From: an uncultured Candidatus Saccharibacteria bacterium
GTDB taxonomy: Bacteria; Patescibacteriota; Minisyncoccia; Phycocordibacterales; Zambryskibacteraceae
Assembly (NCBI GenBank): GCA_964357635.1
Contig: CAYHLZ010000001.1
Location: 198,674-262,673 of the forward strand
DNA length: 64,000 bases
Reading direction: 5' to 3'
The position numbers and the translations under genes were made by a program. Numbering within the stretch: the stretch's first letter is position 1; every line of letters starts with the position of its first letter. The notes under the pieces are model-generated. The model was not told where the DNA came from, searched no databases, and worked only from the letters and a program-made list of their open reading frames with translations. This document shows positions 7,491-44,144 of the stretch, piece by piece.

Positions 7491-10400
7491 TTACCTCCAC
7501 ATTGTAGATTTTGCCGTCTGATGACAGGATAATCTCTTTTGAGTCCAACATTTTACCATTTACCGCTATAGACTTAACTCCGCGACTCAATCCTAAAGGA
7601 TTTTTGACAGTTATTTTATAGCTGGTTGATTTGAAGAAATAAGAAACCTTAAACTCTTTCCAGTCTTTGGGGATGCATGGATTTATAATTAATTTTGACT
7701 TAGAGATTTTAATACCCAAAATAAACTCTAAAGTTGTTCGGTACATTAGCCCCGCAGCACCGGTGTACCATGTCCAACCGCCTCGCCCTTCATATGACGG
7801 TTTTGAATAAATATCTGATGCAACTACATATGGTTCAACTCTATATTGAGTCACCCCTTCTGGACTTCTTGAACGATTAATCGGATTTATAAGGTCAATG
7901 ATGTTTTTTGCCTTGTCCCCTTCTCCTAAGGTAGCAAAAGCCTGTGCCACCCATAGAGCCGCATGGTTATATTGAGAACCATTTTCTCTCACTCCAGGCG
8001 GGTAATCTCCTGTATAACCCACACGCATAGATGACTTTGCTATAGGGGGCGCCAATAACTTCAAAAGTTTTTTGTCTGGCATCAGATATTTTTCTACTGC
8101 GTCCATGGCCTCTCTTGCCCTTTCTTCTGTGCCAGCCCTACTTAAAACTGCCCACGACTGAGTAATTGAGTCAATTTTTATTTCTTCGTTTAAGTGGGAC
8201 CCTAGTGGCGCGCCATCATCAAAGTAAGCTCTTCTGTACCAAGACCCGTCCCAGCCGTGAATCTCAAGCGCATTTTTAATTGATTCGGCAATATTTCTAT
8301 ATTTATCAAGATGTTCAACATCATTTAATTTGGTACAAACTTCAGAAAATCTAGTCAAAATTGAATACAAGAAAAACCCAGACCAAACACTCTCTCCTTT
8401 ACCATTAATTCCAACTTCATTAAATCCGTCGTTCCAGTCCCCTTTACCAATAAGAGGTAGTCCGTGTTCGCCGAAGAATAACGACTTATCAATAGCACGC
8501 GTACAGTGCTCAAATAGCGAATACTTACCTTTTGTTATTTCTGGAACACCCACCCACTCTTTTTTGTTTTTAAAGTCTAGAGCTGGTCCTTCTAGAAACG
8601 GCATTCGCTCGTCAAAAATACTGAAATCACCGGTGATTTCAACATAAGAACATACTATATGTGGTAACCACAACTGATGATCTGACATAACAGAACGCAT
8701 GCCGAAATTATTATGTTCATGCCACCAAGTCTGCACATCACCTTCCACAAATTGATGCTCGGCAGCATCAAGAATCACTTTTCGCACTAAATCAGGATTA
8801 GAATAGATAAATGCGGTTATATCTTGCAGTTGGTCTCTAAAGCCAAAGGCGCCAGATGGCTGTGAATATCCGGCTTTTGTAAATATTCTTGATGATAGGA
8901 TTTGATAAAGAATCCAGTCATTAAACATGATGTCTAGAGACTCGTCGGGTGTAGAGATTGTAATGCTTCTAGAAATTTGGTCCCAATATCGTTCAACTTG
9001 GGCTAGCGCCTCTGTTATCTTTGGTAACTTACGATAAGTGGTTACTAGTTTGCGTATTTCCTCAATGTTTTCCCCTTCTCCGAGAAGAATAAGAACGCTC
9101 TTTTCTTCGCCAGACTTAAGATTGACTACTGTCTGAAGGCTCACGCTGTGGTCAGGTTCATATTTAATCTCATTAGAAAGTTTTTCTTTCTTTAGCGCCT
9201 CTGGAGATTTCACACTACCGCCTCGCCCAAAAAATTCTTCTCTACTTGTTGAGATAGCGTAATTCCCCTTGTTCATGTCAAGAAAAACTAAATTCCCTTG
9301 AAAATGGTTTCTGACAATGTTTTGTGTTATGACTGCCTTTGTCTTGTTGTCTGTACTCGTTATGAGAGAGCGTTTAGTTTGTTCGTAATTTACACCTAGT
9401 ACCAACTCAAAAAATCCTGTCACAGAAAGATTTCTTGTTTCAGTTCCAGTATTTTTTATTGTGAGTTTAAAAATCTTTATTTTCTCCGTTGTGGGAACAA
9501 ACATAAGCAGTTTGTGCTCCAGAGAACCGCGCTTATGCTCAAAAGTAGAGTACCCTCGCCCATGTTTTACAGTGTATGAGCGATCTTCTCCCAAGGGATA
9601 AGGAGTTGGAGACCACAGTTCTCCAGTTTTTTCGTCTCTAATGTAGAGAATCTCACCAGAAGCATCTAATAAACTATCCGCGGCCCAACTTGTCAGCCTG
9701 TTGTCGTAACTGTCAACAGACCAAGTATGGCTCGATCCCCCCTCGGACACCATAAATCCAAACTGAGGGTTAGAAATAACATTAACCCAAGAAGCGGGAG
9801 TTTTAAGGTCTTGAGAGAGATGCATTACATATTCTTTTTTAGTCTCATCAAACCCACCTAAACCATTGTAAAAAGATAAAGAATTTGATGGCTTTAGTGC
9901 CACTTCTTTTTCTGGCAACTCTTTACTTGATTTGAAAATGTTTGGCAATGGTTTGATATTCGGCTTTCTATTTCTTGTTTTTATTTGATATTCAAGGTTA
10001 CCTTCCTCACTATCAAAAATTGCCGAGGCGTTAAAGAGTATAGAGTGTCTGTCTTCTACTGACATGAAATTTGTTTTCAAGTGAAAAACCTTACCGTTAC
10101 TGTGATTATTTTCAACTAGTTTGTTGTAGCGAATGATGAAATCAATCTCGTCATGTAGTGTTTTTATATACCCACCAGGATGTTCGTTGTAGATAACTAT
10201 GTCAATATTTAGACCTTTGTATGTTAAATATCGGTAGCAGAGTAAAACGTTTTTAATAAAATTAATATCTTCTATATCCTTAATTTTAACTACTATGATG
10301 GGCGTATCTCCAGAAATTCCATATTTCCACAGCGAATGAATCATTGGGAAAGCTGGGCTAACGTTGGTAGGCTTATCGCGCAGGTAACCACCAGCCAAGA

Positions 10401-13400
10401 TTCGAGAAGCCAGTTCTTGAAAAATCAGTGCCTGTTCAGAAGAAATACCAAATCTTTTAAGAGCATGTACGCTTTCTTGATTTGCTTTATCAATAATACT
10501 TACTGGGTTTTTTAAATTGCGATACTTTTTAATTACGCTGGTAAGATCCTCTAGGTTTGTTGAATAAGCATTAATAAAAATTATTTTTGTAGACTCATTT
10601 GGTTTTAGGTTTATTTTTTTCTGTAGGCTGAAGATGGAGTCTAGGGTGTAGTCCTTATCGTGACTCACACTTTCTTCGTGGTTAAAAATGTATGGAGAAA
10701 CAGTTGAACCTCTTCTTCCTAAAAACGATTCGCGAGAAGTATTGTATTTTATAACCTCATTTTTAACCTTATTATCAGCCATAAAATGAGCAAAATAGAA
10801 CTTTTTTGTTTTGTCAGGTAAATTATTTCTAGTGAAAACTAAAGATTTGTGTTCTTTGAGGAATTCTGATTTGATGAAAAGTCTTTGATATGCGGGATGT
10901 CCGATATCTTCTCCTTGTGAAGCCAGCACTACCTCTCCGTAACTAGAAACTTCAAAAGACTGTTGAAACTCATTTTGATTTGTTATTGTTAATTCTCTAA
11001 TCTCAACATTATCTTCTGGTGGTACAGAGATTTTAAGGATAGTGTCAATACCTTTGTTTGTTTGGTAAAACTCTGCTTTGTTCTCAGAAAAGATAACTTT
11101 ATAATTCTTCCCCAGAACTTTGGTTGGATGAAAAGTTGGTGACCACAAGCTGTTATCGTCAAGGTTACGAACATAAAGAAATGTGCCGGAACCCTCAAGA
11201 ACCGCGTCTTCTTTAAACCGTGTAAGTAGCAGATTATTGTACTTACTGTAACCACATCCAGTATTGCTTATTGACACTGAATAATTTCCATTAGAAAGAA
11301 AGGCAAACCTCGGCGTTTGGGTTCTCAGTGGAATATATTGTTTTACTAAGTGTCCAGAGTCAGTCGTATTTGAATAATCAATTAACAATCTTGATGTAAT
11401 TTTTGTCGGTTTGACTGGAGTTATGGCCCTAACCTTTTCTTCAAGCAATACTTCAACCGACGCTACTAGCGGATCTTCGTTAAAGAGTTTTCTTATTCGT
11501 TTGTCGTTTAGGGCGTTATTAAGATTACTCATAATAAATCCTTGGTGGTGTGCATAGTAAACCTTAGTAGCTACCCCACCCCTCTTTCTTTCCTTACTGG
11601 GCGTGTAATCAATAGCATCATAAAAACCGTAGCTACTGACCCCGCCTTGAAACATAAGTTTCTCTAAATTTTTTATTGAATTCTTAGGTTCAAATAAAAG
11701 TGACAGTACTGTTGTATATGGTGCTACCACTAGATAGTCGCCCAGACTTCTTTTAAGCCCGATATTTGGAACACCAAATGTTTGATACTCGTAATTCTTG
11801 TTTGCATTTAAGAGGTTATAAGCAGACTCGCCCATCCCCCAAGGGATGCCATATTTTTTAGCGTAACTAATATGAGCTTTTACGGCGGCCCTAGCATTTT
11901 TCCCCAAAAGACTTTCGTTGGTAACATCTAGGAAAATTAAAGAAGTTACATGTTCAAACAGTGATCCGCCCCACGAATAAAGAACCGGATTACTTCCAGA
12001 TTTAACAAACTTTCTGTTCAAGTGGAACCAGTGCTTCTTGGGTGCTTGATTTTTTAGTACCGCAATAAAACTTATGATATTGGTTTCTGAAGCAAGGAAA
12101 TCATAATAAGAACTGTCAATCTTATTAAATGTTGCATTGTAACCTATGTGGAAGAGTCCTCTTTCTTTGTTATATAGAAATCTAAAATCTGTTTCTTCAA
12201 AGATTTTATCGCACTGAACCACTAGTTTGTTGTAACTGTCAAAAAGTTTTGATGCGTTTTGTTCAGAAATCTCTACAATTTCAAGGATTCCCAAAAACCA
12301 AGTACGCACACTTTCTTTGTCTGTTTCTTCCAGAGAATAGCTTTCAATTTCAACTTCAATATCTAAATCCCGCACTGCCAAACTTAGTCTGGATTCTTTT
12401 AAGTCTAGTAGTGTGGGACACTGATTGAGTAAATGGAGAAGCTTCTCATATTTAATAGAAAAGTTTTTATAGCGTTTTAATTTATGAATAGCCGGAAAAT
12501 CGGAAACAATCTTAGAAAACGAAAATAAGTCTCTTGTTTCTTTCCTATATAGACTAATCAGGTTCTCAAGATTCTGAATCCAATAGTAAATATCCTGCAT
12601 GTTTTCTTTGCTATCTACGGCAACCATTTCGGTAATCAGCTTTTTTAACTCATGACTAGAATCTGATAATGAGAATAAAATTTCTTCAAATCCGGAGAGG
12701 GTTAGTTCAATATTGTGTTGCTTAAGACTATTTAAGGCTTTGCTGGAACTATTAATGATTTTGTTTAATTGTTCAACTTTTTCATTGTCATGTTTTTTTG
12801 TCTTGTCTCGCCTTATATTCTCTATAACAACGCTTGATTCTTTTGCAATAGAGACAAGAATATCGCTTAATCCTTGAACAACATTCTCTCCGATAGTCGG
12901 CTTTTTTAGAATATCTAAAATTCCCTGCTTCAAAGTAATAATTGACGCTAAAAAGTTGGCGCTATCAACACTGGAAACATATTGAGGGATAAGGGGTTTT
13001 AATAGTTTAATGTCATACCAGTTATAAAAATGACCTTGATAACGCTCAAGTTTGTTCAAGCTGTTGAATGTGTTGGTAAGTCTAGTTTTCAACTCGCTAA
13101 TTCCTATGTAACCAAAATCGTAAGCAGAAAGTAGAGAGAGAAGACCCATACCAATATTGGTTGGGGAGGTGGTGTTGTTTGAAGCTATAAGTGTTTTTTC
13201 TTCTTGAAAATGATCTGGTATTAACCAGTTATTTTCTGCGTTTGTAAATTCTAAGAAGTAACGGGAGCTTTTACATGCGATATGACGAAGAAGTTCCCTT
13301 TCCTTGGGCATAAAACTAATTGTGTCGGGTCTAGGACGACCCAGCCCATAGGCAATAAGAGGAGAGAGAATCCAAAGTACGCTCCAAATATATATGGGAA

Positions 13401-16260
13401 ATGCAGACGCATTAATGTTAATAAAAATTGAAATAAGCAATAATGACCCGGCTTGCGTAAACCACATAGTTGAATAAATCTCAAGTAAGGTACCTTTCAG
13501 TTTTTTTGCCACTTCCCCAGAACTTTGCCATCTAAGCATGTGCTTTCTGGTCAAATATTTATGGATAAAAGTGCTTACAATGGCACTAATGGCAACTCCA
13601 GCGTTATAAAAAAGAAACACACCACTTACCAGCACCTGCACCACAGCAAATACTGATTCGTTGATAAACGAACTAATTTTATTTTTCAAAGTGGAACTTC
13701 TTTCCCATTTAAGCAGTCCAATACAAACAGAAAATATAAATGGAGAACTCAAGATTATGATTATATAAACACTCCCCCAATACATGTTTGGACTAGATAA
13801 GCCCCATGACAGTAAGAGAAAAGCTAGTGAAACTATCGGAATAGAGCTTCTTCTTAGGTTATCGAAAATTTTCCACCTTGAAACAAAAGAAAATTCATTT
13901 TTTATTAAAGTGCCGTTACCGAGCCGGACTCTTGGAAAAAGCCAGTCAATAATTTGCCAATCGCCACGTGTCCACCGATGTAGACGTGAGACATATTCAT
14001 GATATTGAGAAGGAAAATCATCAGATAATTGGATGTCTGTAGCTAGTCCTGCTCGAGCATACAATCCCTCTAAGAGGTCATGACTAAGAACCGTATTGTC
14101 AGGAATCTTCCCTGCCATCGTTTTTTCAAAAATGTCTATATCATAGATACCCTTACCGAAAAATATTCCACTTTTAAACAAATCTTGATACACATCAGCC
14201 ACCACACTAGAATACGAGTCTATGCCAGAGGCGGAGGAAAAAAATTTAGAAAATAATGATTTGTTAGATGTTTTTAGTGACGTGGATACGCGAGGCTGGA
14301 TTATGCCATAACCACCACGTACAACATTTGTTTTCTCATCAAGGATAGCTCTATTGAGAGGATGTGCGATGCACCCAATGAGCTGACTTGCCGACTCTTT
14401 GGGCATTCGCGTGTCTTCATCTAGAGTTATTACATACTTAATGTTTCTAGGTAATTGAGAGAATTTATTGTTATCAATTATGTATGTGGTGTTTTGAGAC
14501 CCACGAATTAGCTGGTTAAACTCTCTTAATTTGCCTCTCTTTCTTTCCCAACCCATAAAGACGTTTTCTTTTGGGTTCCACAGGCGTTTCCTGTAAAATA
14601 GAAAAAACTTTCTTTCTCCGTTAGAGTATTTTTTATTTAGTTTATTAATCTCATCAGATACATAGATGGTTAGCCCTCTATCTTTCGGCATACTTTCCTC
14701 TAGTGCATCGGTAAAGTCCATCAATAATCCGAAAAAGATATTTTTGTCCTTATTACTTAGGTAATTTACTTCAAGTCGCCTTAATAGTTCGTTAATAGAA
14801 CTTATGTTTCTAAACATCCCCGACGTAACCACAAAGGTTCTAAATTCATCAGGTACTCCATTTTTAAAATCAAACTTAGGTAATGATTTTATCGGCAAAA
14901 AACTTACGATTAAAGAATTTAATAAGTTGGTACCCACTTCACTACTCAAAATAAAGATGAGGACAGCTGTTAGAGCCAAATACAGTCCGCTGGTATATTG
15001 AGCAACATAAAAGGAGACAAGTGCTGATATGCTAAGACAAACCAAAGAGATGCTAGTAAAATAAAATAAACTGGGATTATTGAGCAGTAAACGCCCATAT
15101 TTTTCAAAAAAAGTAGGTTTATAGCTAAACTTTTTTTCAAGTTCATCTCTGCCTTGCCCAATAAGATAGTGGCCGATATGTGCTTTTATAGAACCGTCAT
15201 CTTCAATCTGCCCACTTTCTGTTTTTTTACTGTGAGTAAGTTTAAGAGCATGTTTGGCAATTTCTGCTTCGTGTATACCAGTTACGTCAGCAACCCGAAC
15301 AACCGCATCTTTGTATAGGTTCTTGGTGCGATCATCAAGTGCCGTATAAACTCCAGCGGGATCATTGTGAAATATTTTATCAACCACGTTTACGTTACCC
15401 ACAAAGTCGCCCCACTGCACTTGGTTTAACCATCGCAAGCTCTCAAAAATATTTGATATCAAAACTCTTCTCTTATCTCGCTCATCACCTTCAATCTTGG
15501 CTAAATCCTTTATATCAATCCCCTGCTTTAATAGGTTTGACTTCAACCATTTGGTAACAGGGCGCGCTACGGGTTCGTAATGGGACAGTCTCTGCAGAAG
15601 ATAGAAGCCGAAATTTACAGGGATAATGTTGTATTTTGAAGTAAGTTCGTGAATAATCTCGGAGAATTGAGAGATGCGTTTTTGTTTAGTTTTTTTTATT
15701 ATTTGTTTAAACCAGAACTCTGCTTCATTAAACTCTATGGAAGAAAGAAGAATTCGTTCTATTAGATATTGAATGTTCTCCACCAGAATTATCTTTAAAA
15801 TAGTGGGAGTGGCATAGAGCTCTCGGAGAGTTAGTGGGGTGTGTTTCTGATAGGAGTTTATGAACTTCTCCATTACTTGTTTATCAATTTCGTTCTTGTT
15901 TGCCTTCAGTAATTCAGAAAAAATGAAGTAGGTTCTGGGAACAAAGTTTTGTCCACTCTTAGAAATCTGTGGTAATTTCAGAAATTCTTTTTTTACAATT
16001 CCATTTTCAATGTCAGAAATCGCATTTTCTATAATATAAAAATTATCAACCAACTCTGCCTCTTGAGTCAGGTAACTAGAACTGGTAATACTTTTTATAA
16101 AATTATTGTAGAGTTTGTAGGTACTGCGAACCTTTTTTTGTAAGTTATTAAAAAATGATTCAGCGGGTTTCGGTTTGGAAAAAAGAATGCCTCTTTTACT
16201 TAAATCTGAAGCAAGTTTATCAATTTTCTTAAGATTAACTGCTTCTAATAAATCGCTCAT
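7477..16260 (-). CDS. Giant membrane glycosyltransferase/glycoside phosphorylase, cyclic beta-1,2-glucan synthetase (NdvB/Cgs)-like, GT84 plus GH94
   Basis: At 2927 aa it has an N-terminal region with multiple TM helices flanking a GT domain carrying the ITLDEDTRMP DxD motif, then a large C-terminal GH94-like (cellobiose-phosphorylase-like) beta-sandwich plus (alpha/alpha)6 region. One uninterrupted ORF. Confidence 0.7.
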   Translation of the reverse strand: MSDLLEAVNLKKIDKLASDLSKRGILFSKPKPAESFFNNLQKKVRSTYKLYNNFIKSITSSSYLTQEAELVDNFYIIENAISDIENGIVKKEFLKLPQISKSGQNFVPRTYFIFSELLKANKNEIDKQVMEKFINSYQKHTPLTLRELYATPTILKIILVENIQYLIERILLSSIEFNEAEFWFKQIIKKTKQKRISQFSEIIHELTSKYNIIPVNFGFYLLQRLSHYEPVARPVTKWLKSNLLKQGIDIKDLAKIEGDERDKRRVLISNIFESLRWLNQVQWGDFVGNVNVVDKIFHNDPAGVYTALDDRTKNLYKDAVVRVADVTGIHEAEIAKHALKLTHSKKTESGQIEDDGSIKAHIGHYLIGQGRDELEKKFSYKPTFFEKYGRLLLNNPSLFYFTSISLVCLSISALVSFYVAQYTSGLYLALTAVLIFILSSEVGTNLLNSLIVSFLPIKSLPKFDFKNGVPDEFRTFVVTSGMFRNISSINELLRRLEVNYLSNKDKNIFFGLLMDFTDALEESMPKDRGLTIYVSDEINKLNKKYSNGERKFFLFYRKRLWNPKENVFMGWERKRGKLREFNQLIRGSQNTTYIIDNNKFSQLPRNIKYVITLDEDTRMPKESASQLIGCIAHPLNRAILDEKTNVVRGGYGIIQPRVSTSLKTSNKSLFSKFFSSASGIDSYSSVVADVYQDLFKSGIFFGKGIYDIDIFEKTMAGKIPDNTVLSHDLLEGLYARAGLATDIQLSDDFPSQYHEYVSRLHRWTRGDWQIIDWLFPRVRLGNGTLIKNEFSFVSRWKIFDNLRRSSIPIVSLAFLLLSWGLSSPNMYWGSVYIIIILSSPFIFSVCIGLLKWERSSTLKNKISSFINESVFAVVQVLVSGVFLFYNAGVAISAIVSTFIHKYLTRKHMLRWQSSGEVAKKLKGTLLEIYSTMWFTQAGSLLLISIFININASAFPIYIWSVLWILSPLIAYGLGRPRPDTISFMPKERELLRHIACKSSRYFLEFTNAENNWLIPDHFQEEKTLIASNNTTSPTNIGMGLLSLLSAYDFGYIGISELKTRLTNTFNSLNKLERYQGHFYNWYDIKLLKPLIPQYVSSVDSANFLASIITLKQGILDILKKPTIGENVVQGLSDILVSIAKESSVVIENIRRDKTKKHDNEKVEQLNKIINSSSKALNSLKQHNIELTLSGFEEILFSLSDSSHELKKLITEMVAVDSKENMQDIYYWIQNLENLISLYRKETRDLFSFSKIVSDFPAIHKLKRYKNFSIKYEKLLHLLNQCPTLLDLKESRLSLAVRDLDIEVEIESYSLEETDKESVRTWFLGILEIVEISEQNASKLFDSYNKLVVQCDKIFEETDFRFLYNKERGLFHIGYNATFNKIDSSYYDFLASETNIISFIAVLKNQAPKKHWFHLNRKFVKSGSNPVLYSWGGSLFEHVTSLIFLDVTNESLLGKNARAAVKAHISYAKKYGIPWGMGESAYNLLNANKNYEYQTFGVPNIGLKRSLGDYLVVAPYTTVLSLLFEPKNSIKNLEKLMFQGGVSSYGFYDAIDYTPSKERKRGGVATKVYYAHHQGFIMSNLNNALNDKRIRKLFNEDPLVASVEVLLEEKVRAITPVKPTKITSRLLIDYSNTTDSGHLVKQYIPLRTQTPRFAFLSNGNYSVSISNTGCGYSKYNNLLLTRFKEDAVLEGSGTFLYVRNLDDNSLWSPTFHPTKVLGKNYKVIFSENKAEFYQTNKGIDTILKISVPPEDNVEIRELTITNQNEFQQSFEVSSYGEVVLASQGEDIGHPAYQRLFIKSEFLKEHKSLVFTRNNLPDKTKKFYFAHFMADNKVKNEVIKYNTSRESFLGRRGSTVSPYIFNHEESVSHDKDYTLDSIFSLQKKINLKPNESTKIIFINAYSTNLEDLTSVIKKYRNLKNPVSIIDKANQESVHALKRFGISSEQALIFQELASRILAGGYLRDKPTNVSPAFPMIHSLWKYGISGDTPIIVVKIKDIEDINFIKNVLLCYRYLTYKGLNIDIVIYNEHPGGYIKTLHDEIDFIIRYNKLVENNHSNGKVFHLKTNFMSVEDRHSILFNASAIFDSEEGNLEYQIKTRNRKPNIKPLPNIFKSSKELPEKEVALKPSNSLSFYNGLGGFDETKKEYVMHLSQDLKTPASWVNVISNPQFGFMVSEGGSSHTWSVDSYDNRLTSWAADSLLDASGEILYIRDEKTGELWSPTPYPLGEDRSYTVKHGRGYSTFEHKRGSLEHKLLMFVPTTEKIKIFKLTIKNTGTETRNLSVTGFFELVLGVNYEQTKRSLITSTDNKTKAVITQNIVRNHFQGNLVFLDMNKGNYAISTSREEFFGRGGSVKSPEALKKEKLSNEIKYEPDHSVSLQTVVNLKSGEEKSVLILLGEGENIEEIRKLVTTYRKLPKITEALAQVERYWDQISRSITISTPDESLDIMFNDWILYQILSSRIFTKAGYSQPSGAFGFRDQLQDITAFIYSNPDLVRKVILDAAEHQFVEGDVQTWWHEHNNFGMRSVMSDHQLWLPHIVCSYVEITGDFSIFDERMPFLEGPALDFKNKKEWVGVPEITKGKYSLFEHCTRAIDKSLFFGEHGLPLIGKGDWNDGFNEVGINGKGESVWSGFFLYSILTRFSEVCTKLNDVEHLDKYRNIAESIKNALEIHGWDGSWYRRAYFDDGAPLGSHLNEEIKIDSITQSWAVLSRAGTEERAREAMDAVEKYLMPDKKLLKLLAPPIAKSSMRVGYTGDYPPGVRENGSQYNHAALWVAQAFATLGEGDKAKNIIDLINPINRSRSPEGVTQYRVEPYVVASDIYSKPSYEGRGGWTWYTGAAGLMYRTTLEFILGIKISKSKLIINPCIPKDWKEFKVSYFFKSTSYKITVKNPLGLSRGVKSIAVNGKMLDSKEIILSSDGKIYNVEVIMGD

Positions 16261-36883: not shown

Positions 36884-36904
36884 ATATACCCCCATCGGGT
36901 ATAT
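36884..36904 (-). promoter_or_regulatory. CsoR-type operator in the csoR promoter spacer (copy 1)
   Basis: Minus-strand sequence TTGCAA-TATACCCGATGGGGGTA-TATACT places the pseudo-palindrome ATATACCCGATGGGGGTATAT between -35 and -10, 12 bp upstream of the csoR ATG. Confidence 0.7.
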
Positions 36905-36948
36905 TGCAAGCAGTCTATAAAGACCTCTGTGTATTACTTTATAATTTC

Positions 36949-39075
36949 TCATGCTTTAACTAAGTCCCTCTCAACACGCTTCAGAAGCACCGCATTTGTA
37001 GCCACAATTATCGAAGAAATACTCATGAGAAGTGCCGCGAATTCCGGGCGGAGCATAATACCGAAGCTTGGATACAAGATTCCACCAGCTACTGGTATAG
37101 CTAGAATATTGTAGATTGAAGCCCAGAAAAGGTTTTGCTTCATCTTCCAAACTGTCGCCTTGCTTAAGGTTATTGCTCGAAGAATGTCTAACGGATCAGA
37201 TTTCATAAGGACAACCTTTGCTGTCTCAATCGCCACATCAGTACCTGCGCCAATTGCTATGCCAACATCGGCTTGAGCAAGCGCAGGAGCATCGTTGACA
37301 CCGTCACCGACCATGGCGGTAAATTTTCCTTCCTGCTGAAGTTTTTTGACGTAGTTGGCTTTATCCTCTGGCATCACTTCGGCAAACACTCTATCTATAC
37401 CGATCTGTTTCGCCACCCTTTCTGCCGTCGTCTTGTTGTCTCCGGTAATCATTACGGTTTCAATCCCAAGGTTCTTTAACTTTCTTACTGCTTCACTCGC
37501 ATTTTGCTTTATCGGATCGGCGGCTCCGATAACCGCTTTTACAGAACCGTCAATAGCCAATACCATGATGGTTTCTCCTCGGTCTAGGAACTCATTAATT
37601 TTTTGTTCCAACCCGCCAAGAACAATTTTATTGTCGCGCATGAGCTTCACTGTCCCGACAAGTATATTTTTATCGAGAACTGTCGCTTTTACTCCAAGTC
37701 CGGAAAGGTTCTCGAACCTTTCAACATTTTGAGGCAGTTCCAACTTTCGAGATTTAAGCTCATCAAGCACAGCTTGAGCTAAAGGATGAGATGATTTCGC
37801 TTCTGCTGCACCGACCAGTCGAAGCGCCTCTTCCTCACTAAAACCTTCCACAGTCGCTATATCCGTCACTTTGGGTTTTCCTAGAGTCAAGGTGCCTGTT
37901 TTGTCTAAGACGATTGCTTGAATTTTTGATACTTGTTCAAGGGTCGGAGCGTCCTTGATAAGAATATTGTGCTTTGCCCCCAAGCCGGTCCCAACTGCAA
38001 CGGCCGTTGGCGTAGCAAGTCCAAGAGCATCAGGACAAGCGATGACAACAGTAGCGATAGCAAAAGAGAGCGCGAGCATTATGGAGGACCCTACTACAAA
38101 AAACCAAATGCCAAAGACCAAAAGACCCGACCCTACCGCCGCAATAACGAGATACTTGGCAAACCTGTCAGCAATTTTTTGTCCTGGTGCCTTTGAGTTC
38201 TGCGCCTCTTCAACCATGCGGACAATTTGGGCGAGGGCGGTATCTTTGCCAATTTTTGTCGCCTTAAACCTTACCGAGCCGGCGGTGTTTATAGAGCCAC
38301 CAATTACCTGATCTCCATACTTTTTAGCGACTGGAAGCGACTCTCCGGTAACTAAAGACTCGTCAATGGCTGTTTCGCCGAGAATGATTTCACCGTCAAC
38401 CGGAACTTTGTCGCCCGGCTTAAGGATGACTATATCGCCAAGTTCTATCTCGGAAGTAGAAACGAGTGTTTCTATGCCATTCTTCAAGATTCTTGCTTGG
38501 GGTGGTACGAGATTAAAAAGTGCCTGCAAGGCGTCTGTTGTTCCGCGCCGAGATTTCATCTCCATCCAGTGACCGAACAGCACGAAAGTAATAAGCATCG
38601 CGGCCGCTTCATAGTATGAATCTGCGCCACCAGTCAAAGTCAAAAGAACGCTGAAACCGTATGCTGCCGTAATACCAACCGCAATAAGGACAGCCATGTT
38701 GAGGGTTTTATTTTTCAGGGCGAAGTAGGTTGAATATAGGAATATCCACCCGGAGTAGAAAAATACCGGCGTTGAGAGGATAAAGAGAAGCCACGGGAGC
38801 GGTATCGGAGACGGGAGATTAAGCTTCAAAAACTCTGTGCCTAAAGGTGAATACAGGATGATTGGAATTGTTAATATAAGCGAGAAGAAAAACTTATTCC
38901 GAATATCTATTTCCATGAGACGCGCCATCTCCCGACCAGCAAGACCGGTGTGATCCATACCCATCGTCATCGACATGCTCATTTTGAACTTCTTCCAAAA
39001 ATTCATTTTAGATACATTGCCCATCACATGTCCCGAGTGAACATGGTGTTTTTCGTTATGGTGATTGTGGTTCAT
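36949..39075 (-). CDS. P1B-type heavy-metal (probably copper) translocating ATPase; start placed at MNHNHH
   Basis: DKTGTLT, GDGVNDAPAL, TGES and a TM6 CPD(ALGLATP) motif. His-rich then Met-rich N-terminus (NHNHHNEKHHVHSGH...MSMSMTMGMDH). About 708 aa. Confidence 0.8.
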   Translation of the reverse strand: MNHNHHNEKHHVHSGHVMGNVSKMNFWKKFKMSMSMTMGMDHTGLAGREMARLMEIDIRNKFFFSLILTIPIILYSPLGTEFLKLNLPSPIPLPWLLFILSTPVFFYSGWIFLYSTYFALKNKTLNMAVLIAVGITAAYGFSVLLTLTGGADSYYEAAAMLITFVLFGHWMEMKSRRGTTDALQALFNLVPPQARILKNGIETLVSTSEIELGDIVILKPGDKVPVDGEIILGETAIDESLVTGESLPVAKKYGDQVIGGSINTAGSVRFKATKIGKDTALAQIVRMVEEAQNSKAPGQKIADRFAKYLVIAAVGSGLLVFGIWFFVVGSSIMLALSFAIATVVIACPDALGLATPTAVAVGTGLGAKHNILIKDAPTLEQVSKIQAIVLDKTGTLTLGKPKVTDIATVEGFSEEEALRLVGAAEAKSSHPLAQAVLDELKSRKLELPQNVERFENLSGLGVKATVLDKNILVGTVKLMRDNKIVLGGLEQKINEFLDRGETIMVLAIDGSVKAVIGAADPIKQNASEAVRKLKNLGIETVMITGDNKTTAERVAKQIGIDRVFAEVMPEDKANYVKKLQQEGKFTAMVGDGVNDAPALAQADVGIAIGAGTDVAIETAKVVLMKSDPLDILRAITLSKATVWKMKQNLFWASIYNILAIPVAGGILYPSFGIMLRPEFAALLMSISSIIVATNAVLLKRVERDLVKA

Positions 39076-39083
39076 GTATTTTT

Positions 39084-39542
39084 TTACTCCAAGTTCCATT
39101 TAAACAAACGCTCGGAGACTCCGCCAATGTTCTTGATTTTTAATTCAAGATAGGATGGCAGAGGATTTGTCGATTTAAATATCAAAACTCCTTCGCGATG
39201 ATGACCTCCTGGCTCTGACCCTTCCCATTTAACAGCCTTATATTCTTTGCCGTTGCCATCAACCAGTACGGCAATTTTTGCCATATCCTGATCCAGTTCA
39301 ACTGAATGTGTATCTAAAACAATATCAAATTTCCATTCTTTTGAATCAACAGATAAAACATATGGGGTAACTGTGACCACTACGTTTGCTTGATTATCGG
39401 TTCTTGATTCCCATTTTTGCTCTGTATCAGAAACCGAAGAATCACTTTGAGCCGGACTGGCGGCTGGCTTGGGATTATAGAAAAATAGCAATCCGACTAT
39501 AAACGCAAGCGCTAAAATGAATATTGATACGGTTTTATACAT
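39084..39542 (-). CDS. Secreted hypothetical protein (possible metal-binding beta-sandwich), upstream of the ATPase
   Basis: Signal anchor; GGHHREG motif; 152 aa. Confidence 0.35.
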   Translation of the reverse strand: MYKTVSIFILALAFIVGLLFFYNPKPAASPAQSDSSVSDTEQKWESRTDNQANVVVTVTPYVLSVDSKEWKFDIVLDTHSVELDQDMAKIAVLVDGNGKEYKAVKWEGSEPGGHHREGVLIFKSTNPLPSYLELKIKNIGGVSERLFKWNLE

Positions 39543-39981
39543 GATATCTTTTAAATTTAATAACTTTACTACCTATAAAAATAATGCCGAATAAGTTAAA
39601 GGCAATACCAATCCAGAAAATTTCAATCTGGTACTGGGCAATGATAACAAGAGCTCCAGCAATACCTAATATAGGCACAATATTGGCAAGATAGTGGGCA
39701 CAGCAAGAGACCATCGAGAGAGTAGAAGTTGTGCCTGTCACCGCTACTGTCTTATCTTTCATGATCATGTTACCCGTCTTCACCAAATACTTCAGGTATG
39801 AGTACAGCCCAATCTGAATGCCGAAGCCGACTGACAAACTCACAATAAAATACCAAAAATTGGAAAACTGGTTTTGAGCGAAGTCCCAACCGGAGACTAG
39901 CGTAAGAACGGTAAAATAGACACCAAGTAAAAGTCCGCTTGCCAGCACTCCGTACACAATTGCTTTGACTGAATTTCCCAT
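39535..39981 (-). CDS. Membrane protein with a CCAHY motif; the real start is probably the internal Met, while the ORF runs to 40206
   Basis: The first 75 codons of the long ORF are low-complexity and overlap the upstream small gene. From MGNSVKAIVYG onward there are 4 TM segments. Confidence 0.4.
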   Translation of the reverse strand: MGNSVKAIVYGVLASGLLLGVYFTVLTLVSGWDFAQNQFSNFWYFIVSLSVGFGIQIGLYSYLKYLVKTGNMIMKDKTVAVTGTTSTLSMVSCCAHYLANIVPILGIAGALVIIAQYQIEIFWIGIAFNLFGIIFIGSKVIKFKRYHV

Positions 39982-40024
39982 AATTATTTTTGGGTATCTC
40001 TCACTATCTCTCTCCCCGAGTTTC

Positions 40025-40240
40025 TTATAACCCCTCGCGCTCCAGTTGGCGACGATAGATAGCGCAGATGCCGGCAGAGATTGATATGAGTGTGAGAATG
40101 ATTGCGTCGTAATAGCAGTGCTGTTGCGTAAATCCAAAAATAGTTCCGTTCTCACCGGCAAGCCACGCTCCAATAAGTGCGAGCGCGCCCCAAATACCGG
40201 TAACAATGGATATCCAGTGAATGAATGATGATTTTTTCAT
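40025..40240 (-). CDS. Small 2-TM membrane protein (71 aa)
   Basis: Two hydrophobic helices and a conserved-looking QQHCYYD. Confidence 0.35.
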   Translation of the reverse strand: MKKSSFIHWISIVTGIWGALALIGAWLAGENGTIFGFTQQHCYYDAIILTLISISAGICAIYRRQLEREGL

Positions 40241-40265
40241 ATTATTTATTTAATTTATGATTATT

Positions 40266-41225
40266 TTATATACCGCACCCGCCTTGTTGCCTCTTCGGTG
40301 TAACTGTTTCTCCCGTGCCAACCCCGCACCCGCCCTCTCCTCTTTGTTGCCCCGATTGGCTCACTTGGGCAACGATTCTTGCGTAACCTTGAGCGCTCGA
40401 ATAATCGGCACCAAGCACCTTTTGAGGACTTATATCTTTCCATTCGATTCCACTCTTTTCCATATAAGACCCAATAGTCACGTAGGTGTCCGGAAACCAA
40501 TAAGAATTAACGATGAGAGCAGCTTTCCACATATCCTCTTCGCTTGCGCCTTGTGAGGCCATAAGTTCAAGAAGTCCGAGCATAGCCATGCCGTGGTTAC
40601 AGTCGGGAAAATGAACAGAATTGGCGCAACAGGGTCTGTATATGCCACGCGAGATTCTCTCTACCAGAGACTGCTGTTCGGGCGTCAGATTAAAAAATGT
40701 ATGTTTGCTGTAGTGGTCCATGGGATCTCCTTTTGCGATAGTCCAGCCCCCCGTTGAAGCAAAATTTCCGGCTCCGCCGTAGGAAGGATTTGTCATCTCA
40801 CCAGTCTCTAGAATTGGATTTGAGTTCGCGAGCCCGAGTACCCAGAATAGATTCAGGAGATACCCGGCATTGTCCTGAGTAATTTTGAGCTGGCCGTTGT
40901 TCTGTCCGAGAAGCAGATTCTTGTATTCTTCGGTGAATGCGCCTCTTTTTTCGTAGATGGCCTTGAATTTGTCGGCATCAATTGCGCCTAGGCTTGCGAG
41001 CTTGGCGCCGAGATCACTCCAAGTAACAGGCAAAACAAATCCTTCAGGTGGTAGAACTTTTTTCTCTAATTCTCTGATTTGTCTTTGCTCTGATGCGCCA
41101 AGAGAGTCGGCTCTTTCTTGATTTATTATTTTTGAATCTGTTGTATAAATTAAGGCACTGGCAAGAATTGTTGCGGAAATGACTATGCTCGCCGGAATCA
41201 AATTGTTTCTCGAATCCAGTTTCAT
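40266..41225 (-). CDS. Membrane-anchored Cys/His-rich protein (candidate copper-binding), first gene of the operator-controlled ATPase operon
   Basis: N-terminal TM; PCCANSVHFPDCNHGMAM and C-terminal GGCGVGTG...GGCGI motifs. The promoter immediately upstream carries the operator palindrome. Confidence 0.4.
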   Translation of the reverse strand: MKLDSRNNLIPASIVISATILASALIYTTDSKIINQERADSLGASEQRQIRELEKKVLPPEGFVLPVTWSDLGAKLASLGAIDADKFKAIYEKRGAFTEEYKNLLLGQNNGQLKITQDNAGYLLNLFWVLGLANSNPILETGEMTNPSYGGAGNFASTGGWTIAKGDPMDHYSKHTFFNLTPEQQSLVERISRGIYRPCCANSVHFPDCNHGMAMLGLLELMASQGASEEDMWKAALIVNSYWFPDTYVTIGSYMEKSGIEWKDISPQKVLGADYSSAQGYARIVAQVSQSGQQRGEGGCGVGTGETVTPKRQQGGCGI

Positions 41226-41236
41226 ATATAAATAAC

Positions 41237-41257
41237 ATATACCCCCCTTAGGTATAT
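41237..41257 (-). promoter_or_regulatory. CsoR-type operator (copy 2) in the promoter of the ATPase operon
   Basis: Minus-strand sequence TTGCAA-TATACCTAAGGGGGGTA-TATGTT. Its 21-nt core ATATACCTAAGGGGGGTATAT matches copy 1. Confidence 0.65.
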
Positions 41258-41303
41258 TGCAAGTCCCCTATTAAAACTGGTGTGGATTACTTCTCCTACT
41301 TAA

Positions 41304-41453
41304 CTAAGATTTTTTAAAATCAGCCCAGAGAAACATTACGCCCAAAGCCAAGAAAAGACCCGCTTCCAACCAATTTTGTTTCTGAAAAGCTTCAATAAGG
41401 GCAAGGCCGAAAAATAAAACAAAGACAGCGAAATTTGCACCCAATTTATTCAT
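41304..41453 (-). CDS. Small hydrophobic protein (49 aa; MNKLGANFAVFVLFFGLALIEAF...); it is below the ORF-track length cutoff
   Basis: ATG to TAG, 150 nt, two hydrophobic segments. Found by manual translation of the minus strand. Confidence 0.3.
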   Translation of the reverse strand: MNKLGANFAVFVLFFGLALIEAFQKQNWLEAGLFLALGVMFLWADFKKS

Positions 41454-41504
41454 ATTTCAATTCTACCACTGAAAAAGAAGTGTCTTAGGTTTATTATTTA
41501 ATAC

Positions 41505-41533
41505 TTGACACTTTGCCTAGTATCTGCTATACT
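41505..41533 (+). promoter_or_regulatory. Sigma70-type promoter P1 (TTGACA-N17-TATACT) driving sRNA-like unit 1
   Basis: TTGACA at 41505-41510 and TATACT at 41528-41533, separated by a 17-nt spacer. Confidence 0.65.
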
Positions 41534-41539
41534 ACTCAT

Positions 41540-41728
41540 GTGGCTCTTTGGATTGCTCCTGGCGCTCGAAACATGTTAGACCTGTGGTTTGCAGACCGAA
41601 CCTTGGTCTGACAGGTTCCTCGATGATGTCGCCTTGAGGGACGACAAAGTCCGAGATAGCGCTTCGTTGAAGCTATACCGAGAACCATACTGGGCCCGGG
41701 GGCGAAAACTCCCGGGCTCTTTTTATTT
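41540..41728 (+). ncRNA. Candidate small non-coding RNA 1 (about 185 nt), family unknown
   Basis: Consensus promoter immediately upstream. An intrinsic terminator (GCCCGGGGG-cgaaaact-CCCGGGC then CTTTTTATTT) at 41692-41728. Several internal hairpins; no credible ORF. Confidence 0.5.
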
Positions 41729-41755
41729 GTTTGAAAAGTGCTTATTATTTGACAC

Positions 41756-41784
41756 TTGACACTTACTCTTGTGTCTGCTATACT
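41756..41784 (+). promoter_or_regulatory. Sigma70-type promoter P2, near-identical to P1
   Basis: TTGACA at 41756-41761 (a second overlapping TTGACA at 41749-41754) and TATACT at 41779-41784. The TCTGCTATACT block is shared with P1. Confidence 0.65.
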
Positions 41785-41790
41785 CCACAG

Positions 41791-42015
41791 TGGACTGGCT
41801 GAAAGGAGAGTGTCTTCAACAACGACCTGAATCGCTCGTCAAATCTTTATTTCAACACCAGGACCTGCATCATCATCACCGGCACTTCGACCGACGGCAT
41901 CACCGGCGGCGCGCCGCGCGACACGGCCGAGGGCACGAAGGAGTACTAGCTCCCGAGTGCACGGCCCCACGGGCCCGGGAAGGACTTCAAACTTCCCGGG
42001 CCTGTTTCATTTTTA
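41791..42015 (+). ncRNA. Candidate small non-coding RNA 2 (about 225 nt), with a GC-rich core, family unknown
   Basis: Promoter P2 upstream. Terminator GGCCCGGGAAG-gacttcaaa-CTTCCCGGGCC then TGTTTCATTTTT at 41972-42015. A convergent gene follows, so it is not a 5' leader. Confidence 0.5.
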
Positions 42016-42486
42016 AGAAATCTTCTCTGCAATCAATAATTCTTTTGTATAGATAGTGTCGGGAACATTTTCATATGGTTTTATCCCCTCTCCGATTGAT
42101 TCGGACACTTTGTGGTAAGTTACTTTTTGAACGAGTTTCCTCTGAAGCAGATAATTATTGAGCGTCGGACCGCTCGTCACTACAATATTGATGTCAGGTT
42201 CTATCGCCTCTTCGGGAGTGTTAACAACCTTGTAACCACTTTTTGGTTTAAAGTTTTTGTCTCTTGTAACTACAAATTTTTCTATCGGAAGCTCGTCAAA
42301 TTGCTTCCTTTCTTTATCATCATAAGTCTGTATCGCATCATAAGTCTTCCTGCCTATTAAGATGCGGTCATATTTCTTGAGGACATTAAGAGTGTGTGGC
42401 CAATAGGAGTCAGGGATAAAGTCTTCGCTCCCGTCTTTACGAGCAATATATCCGTCTTCTGAAATTACGTTATAGAGCGTAACCAT
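42013..42486 (-). CDS. Dihydrofolate reductase-like protein (RibD C-terminal/DHFR family)
   Basis: MVTLYNVISEDGYIARKDGSEDF...ILIGRKTYD...NIVVTSGPTLNNYLL pattern of the DHFR-like fold; 157 aa. Confidence 0.6.
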   Translation of the reverse strand: MVTLYNVISEDGYIARKDGSEDFIPDSYWPHTLNVLKKYDRILIGRKTYDAIQTYDDKERKQFDELPIEKFVVTRDKNFKPKSGYKVVNTPEEAIEPDINIVVTSGPTLNNYLLQRKLVQKVTYHKVSESIGEGIKPYENVPDTIYTKELLIAEKIS

Positions 42487-42492
42487 TATCTT

Positions 42493-43032
42493 TTATTCAT
42501 GAAATAGATGTGCATTTTCTAGATGGATAAGTGCGGTGGTTATGGCTTGTTTAGTATATGTAAGTCTATCTAATCTACCGTGAGTCAAGATACCGATAAG
42601 ACCTTCTGCTGCTCCAACATTCTTGTTTGTTGTTAATCCTGCTTCAGCTGTTGCATCAGACATATTCATTCCTTTTTCGTGTATCAATTTAGCAATGATT
42701 TTGGGTGGCTCAAAGGCAGAAGATAATCCGAGATGAATATTTTTACCATCATATATTGCACACACGCACAGATCCATAACACCAGTTTTTGTATGTGGCA
42801 CAGCCATGAGTCCACTTTCAATTCCAAAACTATAATCCCCATCTCCAATAGATACTTTTGCGCGATTAATTGCTCCTGTAATAGTCTCTTCCAACGACTT
42901 TGGTTGATCGCTTATGCCGTTGGGAACAGATACACCTTCAACCATGCTATTAGCTAGCATCGGATATTGAGTAATGAGTTCTTTAACAGCAGTAATTTTT
43001 TGAGGATTTAGTGAAGCTACAATAATTTTCAT
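42493..43032 (-). CDS. Inosine/xanthosine triphosphatase (YjjX, Maf/Ham1 superfamily)
   Basis: MKIIVASLNPQKITAV...GVSVPNGISDQP...FGIESG pattern typical of YjjX NTPases; 179 aa. Confidence 0.55.
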   Translation of the reverse strand: MKIIVASLNPQKITAVKELITQYPMLANSMVEGVSVPNGISDQPKSLEETITGAINRAKVSIGDGDYSFGIESGLMAVPHTKTGVMDLCVCAIYDGKNIHLGLSSAFEPPKIIAKLIHEKGMNMSDATAEAGLTTNKNVGAAEGLIGILTHGRLDRLTYTKQAITTALIHLENAHLFHE

Positions 43033-43045
43033 TTTCCTAATTTTA

Positions 43046-43567
43046 TCAACGAATACCGGTATCGCAAGAGATAACTATGTTCTCTACCCTATCAGGGCTG
43101 ACGGTAACCGAGACATCACCACAAGTTTTGGATATACCATTGTTAACGGCGTTGACGATGTAATCTCCAGGTGGCAGGTTAATCAAAAACTTTCCGTCCT
43201 TGCCACTTTTCATAGTTGCAAAAGTTTTCTCCGATGAAGCTCGGCGCACGACGACATCCGTCTCATATGGAGCGTCCGGACACTCCTCTCCGACACGCAT
43301 CACAGGACACATCGGTCCGCGCAAGATCGTACCTCCTATTCCAGACTGGTACGGCAAGATACCTGCCCCACCTCCACCAACACTAGGGCACTCCGCAAAT
43401 TCGCACCTAGGACCAGTACGGCCAACGTAGGAGCCGTCAGGGCAAAGTTTCGCTTCTTGGGTACAGAAAACTTGTTCGTCGCTCTTACTCCCTGACAACC
43501 CCACAAGTACGCCAAAAATAGCGAGTGTGAGAAGCGTAATGAGCCCAAAAATAATCTTTTTACTCAT
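43046..43567 (-). CDS. Secreted hypothetical protein with a C-terminal carboxypeptidase-regulatory-like beta-sandwich
   Basis: Signal anchor; Gly-rich linker; PGDYIVNAVNNG...VSVTVS. Confidence 0.35.
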   Translation of the reverse strand: MSKKIIFGLITLLTLAIFGVLVGLSGSKSDEQVFCTQEAKLCPDGSYVGRTGPRCEFAECPSVGGGGAGILPYQSGIGGTILRGPMCPVMRVGEECPDAPYETDVVVRRASSEKTFATMKSGKDGKFLINLPPGDYIVNAVNNGISKTCGDVSVTVSPDRVENIVISCDTGIR

Positions 43568-43573
43568 TTAAAA

Positions 43574-43747
43574 CTAATTTGGCTTGTGGAAGTGTTTGCC
43601 CACGTAGTACGGCCAGATGAAGAGGGCGAGAACCCCTTTCCAGAAAGGAAGATGAAGATAGCCAATGCTGAAAATCCACCCAATCATCCAGATAGCACTG
43701 CACGCCTGATTTATTTCTATTGTTTTTACTGTTTCTGCTATTTCCAT
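43574..43747 (-). CDS. Small membrane protein (57 aa), tandem paralog 1; below the ORF-track cutoff
   Basis: MEIAETVKTIEINQACSAIWMIGWIFSIGYLHLPFWKGVLALFIWPYYVGKHFHKPN; ATG to TAG. Confidence 0.4.
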   Translation of the reverse strand: MEIAETVKTIEINQACSAIWMIGWIFSIGYLHLPFWKGVLALFIWPYYVGKHFHKPN

Positions 43748-43756
43748 GATGAATTT

Positions 43757-43918
43757 TTAATTAATAAGCGCGAACTGGAGACCTAAGTAATACGGCCAGA
43801 GCGCTAGAGCTAAGAGCCCCTTACCGAAACTTAGGTGTAAGAAGCCAATAGTGAAAAGCCACCCTATAAGCCAAATTCCGCCCGTAAACACATGGTTTTC
43901 TATCTTTATCTTTTGCAT
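43757..43918 (-). CDS. Small membrane protein (53 aa), tandem paralog 2
   Basis: MQKIKIENHVFTGGIWLIGWLFTIGFLHLSFGKGLLALALWPYYLGLQFALIN; shares the GWxF(S/T)IGxLHLxFxKGxLALxxWPYY motif with paralog 1. Confidence 0.4.
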   Translation of the reverse strand: MQKIKIENHVFTGGIWLIGWLFTIGFLHLSFGKGLLALALWPYYLGLQFALIN

Positions 43919-43955
43919 ACTCTATATTATACAACAAACTATCAGCTATGTGGGG

Positions 43956-44144
43956 CTAATTTATCTCAACATTTTTCGCAAGAGTTTTAAATCTCTCTCC
44001 GTTTGATTGAACTACGGTAATAGTAATATGACCAGTTTTGCTCGTATTGATATCTTTAACCACACCAGATTTTCCTACATGTGTTCCCCCAATAACCTTG
44101 CACCTCGCGCCATCTTTTAGTTTTTTGTCTGATTTAAGTTTCAT
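43956..44144 (-). CDS. Small KOW-like hypothetical protein (62 aa)
   Basis: ARCKVIGGTHVGKSGVVKDI resembles a KOW motif. Confidence 0.3.
   Translation of the reverse strand: MKLKSDKKLKDGARCKVIGGTHVGKSGVVKDINTSKTGHITITVVQSNGERFKTLAKNVEIN

Follow-up and report, generated by a model that had tools for sequence, protein, structure and literature searches.

A conserved structured RNA gene and its probable tandem companion in a groundwater Patescibacteria genome

Adjacent small RNA (sRNA) genes that lie on the same strand, are terminated separately and have related promoters, 5′ starts and terminators around differing centres are exemplified by the OmrA/OmrB pair, whose conserved 5′ end serves as a single-stranded seed for Hfq-assisted pairing with mRNAs. 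Other described RNAs that invite comparison with the locus reported here are 6S RNA (ssrS, RF00013), 5S rRNA, the Y RNAs and the orphan motifs of the raiA type. Patescibacteria, also called the candidate phyla radiation (CPR), are uncultured bacteria with very small genomes in which few regulators can be recognised, and literature searches found no paper on stand-alone sRNAs or on 6S RNA in these bacteria. The present work concerns a 64,000-nt stretch of DNA (the window; GenBank assembly GCA_964357635.1, contig CAYHLZ010000001.1, positions 198,674 to 262,673 of the forward strand) from a groundwater Patescibacteria metagenome-assembled genome (MAG), whose closest named relatives carry the label Minisyncoccia. 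Its non-coding stretch at 41454-42012 holds two successive transcription units on the + strand, here unit 1 and unit 2, which a first-pass annotation of the sequence had described as two paralogous orphan sRNA genes, perhaps of an undescribed RNA family. The reading that we favour, with a probability of about 70%, is that both units are independent, stand-alone non-coding RNA genes built on a shared expression cassette, and that unit 1 belongs to a conserved structured family, denoted type A. Tandem sibling sRNAs such as OmrA/OmrB would be its closest architectural analogue.

The evidence that carries this reading comes from the comparison of unit 1 with its orthologues. Unit 1 is about 190 nt long and consists of a body of about 150 nt (41540-41688, + strand) plus a terminator. 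Synteny with a dihydrofolate reductase (DHFR)-like gene led to a copy with 79% identity in another Minisyncoccia MAG (GCA_049651785.1, locus L004), which lies on the convergent strand and has the same promoter, GUGG start and terminator, and a conserved 53-aa membrane protein led to a third distinct copy (L165; European Nucleotide Archive (ENA) ERZ1758447). Partial copies were present in L166 and L167. These orthologues were found by nhmmer and blastn at E values of 1e-23 to 1e-45. The alignment of the three sequences has a mean column identity of 85-86%; conservation extends to the promoter hexamers, TCTGCTATACT, the GUGG start and the terminator, and the stems are variable. The elements GCGCUCG, UUGCAGACCGA, GUUCCUCGA and AGUCCGAGAUAGCGCUU are invariant, with the consensus promoter on one side and the GGGCCC terminator on the other, and unit 1 scores 151-180 bits with the type A covariance models R1 and R3.

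Both the minimum free energy (MFE) fold of the unit 1 body and the consensus fold of the three orthologues (RNAalifold) describe a three-way junction whose joining segments are short. The consensus comprises 65 pairs, which build a closing helix P1, a tight junction, two arms (P2 and P3) and the terminator. Mapped to the window, P1 pairs 41540-41566 with 41658-41688; P2 spans 41570-41617 and bears the invariant loop CAGAC (41592-41596, within UUGCAGACCGA); P3 spans 41619-41655 and ends in a conserved apical GAGGG, its internal loop not being conserved in L165; and the terminator helix occupies 41692-41719. In this fold 94.8% of the cells are standard-paired and six pairs have changed on both sides, a number attained by only 12 of 500 column shuffles, and when the 3′ partners were slid by 1-3 columns, pairing fell to 32-47%, with 0-1 double changes. 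The body alone has an MFE z score of -3.64 relative to shuffled sequences. No + strand reading frame is conserved across the three copies: the frame that is open in the window meets a stop at codon 4 in L165 and is shifted by a 2-nt indel in L004, and the indels are not multiples of three. The consensus fold with its compensatory pairs, the folding z score and the lack of a conserved frame lead us to conclude that unit 1 is a bona fide gene for a conserved, structured, non-coding RNA. The first-pass annotation had proposed looking for covariation in related genomes and had held that a conserved open reading frame (ORF) in relatives would count against an RNA family; the former is seen in the six compensatory pairs over three sequences, and the latter was not found for type A. 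Purifying selection maintains the structure of type A in at least three related lineages of the Minisyncoccia type, type A is a new, narrowly distributed family within the known kind of bacterial stand-alone structured sRNAs, and it is very likely that unit 1 is a functional sRNA.

Two minor observations concern the same sequence. A frame antisense to type A is open and similar in L004 (5704-5887) and L165 (4413-4607; both on the + strand of the locus), where it reads …SRGPVWS.A.QQALSRT…SSRNSV…; it carries a stop and a frameshift in the window copy and has no start codon, and we read it as a by-product of the conserved RNA sequence. The conserved motifs were also considered by eye as parts of a hammerhead, a k-turn, a loop E or a CsrA sponge (GGA loops), none of which fits.

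The promoters and terminators of both units were found at the positions where the first-pass annotation had placed them. The promoter block of unit 1 (41491-41538, + strand) consists of an AT-rich upstream stretch, a -35 box TTGACA (41505-41510), a 17-nt spacer ending in TG and a -10 box TATACT (41528-41533). That of unit 2 (41742-41789, + strand) has a doubled TTGACAC (41749 and 41756), the -35 box at 41756-41761, a 17-nt spacer, TG and TATACT at 41779-41784. According to a promoter scan, both match the sigma-70 consensus at 11 of 12 positions and carry the TG of an extended -10 element; they are the two best sites in the scanned 4-kb region, and no other site with 11 of 12 matches exists in the 64 kb. 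Transcription is predicted to start at about 41538-41540 in unit 1 and at about 41788-41790 in unit 2. The pattern shared by the two blocks occurs at these two places only in the window, and in none of 100 shuffled sequences. That a common block is present at both units was as initially described, but its degenerate position is A/G and not G/T (with A in unit 1, one mismatch), and the repeat is longer than proposed: the two blocks form a 48-nt direct repeat with 81% identity. The promoter architecture of unit 1 is also kept in four relatives (L004, L165, L149 and L150), and the string TTGACACTTGACACTTAC of the unit 2 promoter is identical in the promoter of a further RNA, type C (see below), in L149.

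At the 3′ side, unit 1 ends in a canonical intrinsic terminator (41692-41729, + strand), in which GGGCCCGGGGGC, a GAAA loop and ACTCCCGGGCTC make up an 11-bp stem followed by TTTTTATTTG; it is kept in L004 and L165, with one compensatory pair. The terminator hairpin of unit 2 (41969-42015, + strand) is formed by ACGGGCCCGGGAAG, the 9-nt spacer GACTTCAAA and CTTCCCGGGCCTGT, with 14-nt inverted-repeat arms, followed by TTTCATTTTT, and it overlaps the stop codon of the convergent gene, whose end is at 42013. It is less canonical because its U-tract is interrupted (CTGTTTCATTTTT), and the site was not listed by the terminator scanner. The hairpin pattern GGGCCCGGG-N-CCCGGGC occurs only at 41692-41717 and 41971-42001 in the window and is absent from the shuffled sequences, and a terminator repeat comprising the 3′ half and the tail (32 nt, 72% identity) is common to the two units. 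The top of the unit 2 hairpin, GGACTTCAAACT, is found as well in the type C terminator of L150. The possibility of a bidirectional terminator that also serves the convergent gene was rejected, as the opposite strand has no U-tract after the hairpin.

Unit 2, denoted type B, is about 228 nt long, and its body (41790-41968, + strand) is an orphan sequence with an AT-rich 5′ half and a GC-rich 3′ half. The unusually GC-rich core noted in the first-pass annotation is real: GC content reaches 65-72% at 41850-41999, as opposed to approximately 35-45% in the flanks. This core contains an exact 10-nt direct repeat, CATCACCGGC, at 41874-41883 and 41898-41907 (24 nt apart), and its minus-strand translation resembles a fragment of a high-GC protein (…RELVLLRALGRVARRAAGDAVGRSAGDDD…), with no Pfam match. 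The z score of -3.3 obtained for the full unit is owed to the terminator, since the body without it folds no better than shuffled sequences (z -1.09; opposite strand, -1.33). No homologue of the body was detected by nhmmer or blastn in any of the relative loci fetched, nor by distant blastn in phage and plasmid collections. When run with filters off, the covariance models of type A (R1) and type C (R2) gave at most 3.5 bits on the locus outside the unit 1 body, and unit 2 reached at most 1.3 bits with the type A models, so it is not a member of that type; the idea that it represents a diverged type A or type C RNA was rejected on the same grounds. In a global alignment, the bodies of units 1 and 2 are 52% identical, which is the level between unrelated bodies.

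It follows that the two RNAs cannot be called paralogous as initially proposed, their relatedness being limited to the promoter block and the terminator. Likewise, the suggestion of an undescribed RNA family holds for unit 1, with its two orthologues and compensatory changes, but not for unit 2, which is not established as a structured RNA family because it has no homologue in the loci and collections searched and folds no better than its shuffled versions. What unit 2 presents is, therefore, a transcription unit with good signals, for whose product there is so far no evidence of conservation or specific structure, and the chances that unit 2 is a functional sRNA are even or slightly better.

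A broader view of the cassette was provided by a third body, type C, which was found on the minus strand of L149 (2600-2890) and L150 (797-1015). L149 is the closest relative recovered (a neighbouring 174-aa protein is 88% identical, the corresponding figure for L150 being 79%). The type C RNA stands alone, measures about 150-215 nt plus a terminator and shares with the window units the promoter with 11 of 12 matches, the AGUGG start, the GGGCCC-type terminators and the neighbourhood. It is conserved between both loci (nhmmer E of about 5e-8), with shared helices and one compensatory pair, it has no family match in Rfam at E ≤ 1, and its body shows no relationship to type A or to unit 2. When the types are compared with one another, identity is 57-76% in the promoters and 67-77% in the terminators, whereas the bodies show 45-55% identity, the level of unrelated sequences, compared with 79-82% for the bodies within type A. 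Each covariance model, be it R1 or R3 for type A or R2 for type C, matches its own type only.

Since relatives bear this unrelated body in the same cassette and the same neighbourhood, in which genes related to copper and stress and genes for small membrane proteins are rearranged, the lineage holds a small set of sRNA genes with common expression signals. Such genes would most likely arise by duplication of the cassette, followed by replacement or divergence of the body, and unit 2 would then be a sibling of the expression cassette only, with the 48-nt promoter block, an ACAGUGG start and the GGGCCCGGG terminator placed around an unrelated, lineage-specific GC-rich body. An extension of this idea, which we regard as unlikely, is that the promoter, a clamp of 5′ GUGG and 3′ CCAC and the GGGCCCGGG terminator might constitute a lineage-specific scaffold into which unrelated bodies (A, B and C) are swapped, and that these bodies might serve as interchangeable RNA components, decoys or specificity modules of a ribonucleoprotein or of a defence or anti-defence system of these episymbiotic, reduced-genome bacteria.

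A plausible course of events at the locus can be outlined from the sequence. Each unit would be transcribed from its near-consensus sigma-70 extended -10 promoter and would end at its own intrinsic terminator; because the promoters are near consensus, expression would be high and probably constitutive. In unit 1, the GUGG just after the predicted start would pair with the sequence right before the terminator, generating the long closing helix from which the two arms emerge, and, since the 5′ end would pair right up to the terminator, the RNA is probably stable. It could be tentatively proposed that unit 1 acts by binding a protein or another macromolecule. This would be favoured over the action of a free seed because it is in the junction and hairpin loops that the conserved nucleotides lie, and because a search of the three neighbourhoods revealed no complementary target, the complements of the conserved type A blocks being met only on the gene's own antisense strand. 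When RNAduplex was run against translation-initiation regions, long duplexes were uninformative, and the duplex between units 1 and 2 was no better than shuffled sequences.

These features can now be set against the described systems. In contrast to OmrA/OmrB, only about 6 nt, (A)GUGG, are common to both units at the 5′ end, and in unit 1 they are buried in the closing helix; furthermore, the bodies are wholly unrelated rather than merely diverged, and no target complementarity was found nearby. 6S RNA binds the sigma-70 RNA polymerase holoenzyme and templates product RNAs. Type A resembles it in being stand-alone, probably abundant, about 150-190 nt long, driven by a strong sigma-70 promoter, paired at its ends and probably protein-acting. 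However, it has no model match, it folds as a three-way junction and its distribution is apparently very narrow, whereas that of 6S RNA is near-universal. With 5S rRNA and Y RNAs it shares a closing helix formed by the ends, two arms with internal loops, a tight junction and the location of the conserved nucleotides in loops and junction. It differs from 5S rRNA in its body of about 150 nt (against about 120 nt), in having its own promoter and terminator and in the absence of rRNA genes from the window, and from both in lacking an Rfam match; no Ro/TROVE gene was seen among the neighbours with Pfam calls. Finally, orphan RNA motifs recognised by comparative genomics, such as those of the raiA type, also combine a covariation-backed structure with a stand-alone gene that has a terminator, but these are present in Rfam and in many genera, while type A matches none of the 4227 families and is known from three close lineages.

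Several points weigh against the proposed reading. Only three distinct type A sequences are available and they are close kin (79-85% identity), so that the covariation is real but thin, and the shuffle control is not to be taken as a probability. Promoters, transcript starts and transcript ends are all sequence-based predictions. Unit 2, having neither a homologue nor excess folding stability, may be non-functional or a very young duplicate, the protein-binding mode is proposed from the architecture, and the genome-wide pattern scans described below were too strict or too poorly aimed to give the true distribution. Among the alternatives, it was considered that unit 1 or unit 2 could be a highly divergent housekeeping RNA, namely 6S, signal recognition particle (SRP, 4.5S) RNA, RNase P RNA, 5S rRNA or transfer-messenger RNA (tmRNA), missed by Rfam in Patescibacteria. 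None of these RNAs was found in the 64-kb window; the strong, constitutive-looking promoter, the paired ends and the size of about 150-190 nt are reminiscent of 6S RNA, and the junction, in which two arms extend from a closing helix, is topologically reminiscent of 5S rRNA, the P2 loop GACCGAAC presumably resembling the 5S loop C motif. However, a search of the window with Rfam 15 at gathering thresholds yielded four tRNAs and no rRNA, and at E ≤ 10 the 700-nt locus and the L004 and L165 orthologues gave terminator-driven noise only (SdsR_RyeB, enterovirus cloverleaf and miRNA models), in agreement with the earlier failure to recognise any tmRNA, RNase P, SRP or 6S signature by eye in either unit. 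This negative result is not simply a failure of Rfam on this lineage, since a canonical tmRNA (95 bits) was detected in a related genome (L151:16569-16975, + strand), directly 3′ of smpB, which validates at least the tmRNA model there. As for the individual candidates, 6S RNA was rejected because there is no covariance match even at E ≤ 10 in the three orthologues and the fold is not a rod whose large central bubble imitates an open promoter; SRP RNA, because no Rfam match was obtained and the domain IV motif (which we take to be a GNRA or GGAA loop with an AGCA-type partner) was not seen by eye; and tmRNA, because neither ARAGORN, which identified four tRNAs in the window, nor Rfam finds one there. 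RNase P RNAs are typically about 350 nt long, more than twice the size of type A, and no Rfam match supports this candidate, the units measuring only about 190 and 228 nt instead of the expected 330-400 nt or so; the stretch AAAGUCCGAG is, we presume, only loosely like conserved region CR-I of that RNA. For 5S rRNA, which is usually encoded in an rRNA operon, there is no RF00001 match at E ≤ 10, the body is too long at about 150 nt, and the window yielded no rRNA. Type A is, in addition, missing beside homologous genes in L005-L010, L151-L154 and L169, an absence of weak weight because only 3-20 kb per genome were examined. We consequently deem a housekeeping identity very unlikely. A riboswitch, leader or attenuator was also rejected, as already stated in the first-pass annotation, because no same-strand gene follows: the next element after unit 1 is the unit 2 promoter, the next after unit 2 is the convergent gene, and the layout is the same in L004, L149, L150 and L165. 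Extremely unlikely is the production of a small protein by one or both units, whether a metal-binding peptide from the 95-aa His/Arg-rich ORF (41769-42056), a hydrophobic peptide of 13 aa translated without a leader from 41538 or the product of a type I toxin mRNA. The His-rich ORF does adjoin copper-resistance genes, an ATG is located at the predicted start of unit 1, and type I toxin mRNAs, too, typically have paired 5′ and 3′ ends. Nevertheless, the 95-aa ORF begins inside the promoter, passes through the terminator hairpin and overlaps the convergent gene. A phmmer search of 1.84 billion representative proteins returned for it one low-scoring match, which covers part of a 1139-aa protein (E 1.5e-5, 35% identity), and seven reading-frame fragments of unit 2, from five of the six frames, had no Pfam match, so the initial view of this ORF as spurious is well founded. 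Moreover, unit 2 contains no ATG, the 13-aa ORF is missing from L004 and L165, type A frames are broken by indels and stops, and a 1-nt indel breaks the candidate frame in the alignment of the two type C copies.

The remaining alternatives concern the expression signals rather than the identity of the products. Unit 2 might be a recent or decaying duplicate of promoter and terminator around a captured GC-rich fragment, with no selected function whether or not it is transcribed, an explanation that we consider possible though doubtful. It would account for the absence of homologues and for a body that folds no better than chance on either strand; a core with 65-72% GC looks foreign in a genome that averages about 40%, the closest relative, L149, bears a different RNA at the equivalent position, and the interrupted U-tract and the unlisted terminator site point in the same direction. 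On the other hand, the promoter with its TG and the hairpin with its 14-nt arms are intact, and the region is carried by three contigs, including ENA contig Hain_H41_01um_R3_672 (ERZ1292624; locus tags AAB719_00970 and AAB719_00980 in the NCBI MAG), which are 100% identical to the window over this region and derive from different samples of the same population. A compact genome seldom retains 280 nt of useless DNA, and the missing homologues may merely reflect sparse sampling of the genus. It was also contemplated that the RNAs might matter mainly in cis, so that convergent firing of the strong promoters would control the neighbouring DHFR-like gene through transcriptional interference or through antisense read-through, with the transcript bodies of secondary importance. 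All five loci (window, L004, L149, L150 and L165) have a protein gene whose stop codon faces the convergent RNA gene; in four of them the distance between U-tract and stop codon is about 10 nt or less, or the two overlap. The unit 2 terminator, moreover, is imperfect. However, the partner is different in every locus (the DHFR-like protein, an 80-aa protein, a 174-aa protein, a homologue of a 293-aa protein of L149 and a 100-aa protein), the type A terminators are strong and conserved, and a body conserved with covariation is not needed for interference. Given such varied partners and the constraint on the type A body, regulation in cis appears quite unlikely, and two RNA genes sharing a cassette remain the preferred interpretation.

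With regard to its distribution, type A has to date been met in only a few genomes of the Minisyncoccia type, all close relatives. When the homologues of the DHFR-like gene were followed, the RNA was present only in the closest relative, L004, and synteny decays fast; it was not found beside homologous genes in the slightly more distant relatives listed above. Model R3, derived from alignment A11, recovered only the known type A copies from about 1 Mb of fetched loci. A scan of genome contigs with the pattern GCTCGAAA...CCTCGATGA...TCCGAGA returned the L004 contig and 18 matches in unrelated taxa that R3 did not match; this pattern was too strict, because L165 reads CTCGCAAC and CTCGACAA at the corresponding elements. 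The shared promoter pattern retrieved from metagenome contigs at least 119 unrelated promoters, many of them preceding tRNAs or mRNAs of other phyla, with no related body, and two scans of viral contigs gave nothing relevant.

The practical weight of type A is limited for now by its confinement to a few close relatives. Yet, with a strong promoter, a conserved structure and no counterpart in Rfam, it is a concrete candidate for a lineage-specific RNA function, and its alignment and model (A11, R3) can be used as a query across CPR genomes. The finding of three unrelated bodies in one cassette hints at the birth of sRNA genes by duplication of expression signals around new sequence, and unit 2, should it turn out to be functional, would illustrate a very recent birth.

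The locus is bordered on the left by a divergent gene for a 49-aa membrane protein (41304-41453, minus strand), which is a real gene, as indicated by 94% identity in L149, and on the right by the convergent RibD_C/DHFR-like gene of 157 aa (42013-42486, minus strand). Gene callers placed no gene in the intervening gap (41454-42012) on any of the three contigs that carry the region. Around the RNA genes, a set of neighbours recurs with shuffled order and orientation when window positions 36900-44000 are compared with L004, L149, L150 and L165: a Cu-ATPase, CsoR, a multicopper oxidase, the DHFR-like gene, a 173-aa secreted protein, the 49-aa and 53-aa membrane proteins and a META-domain protein. 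The neighbourhood, judging from this comparison, looks like a rearrangement hot spot.

Other observations were made in the surroundings of the locus. An inverted repeat, ATATACC-N7-GGTATAT, with a C-rich centre (CCCCCTT), lies at 41237-41257, just upstream of a 319-aa gene (40266-41225, minus strand), and resembles a CsoR-type operator; the minus-strand block to which that gene belongs also contains a Trns_repr_metal (CsoR-family) gene and a P-type ATPase (36949-39099). At 43574-43918 (minus strand) there are tandem paralogous membrane-protein genes of 57 and 53 aa, with 54% mutual identity. The 53-aa family, with 265 proteins at E ≤ 1e-8, occurs widely across Patescibacteria, and one of its genes is found within about 0.1-1 kb of the RNA genes in L004, L150 and L165. 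Farther away, a single ORF of 2927 aa (7477-16260, minus strand) resembles what we take to be the giant proteins often met in CPR genomes. Lastly, a tRNA-Gln lies 4.5 kb from the RNA in the window, and a tRNA is situated 2.6 kb from the RNA in L004.

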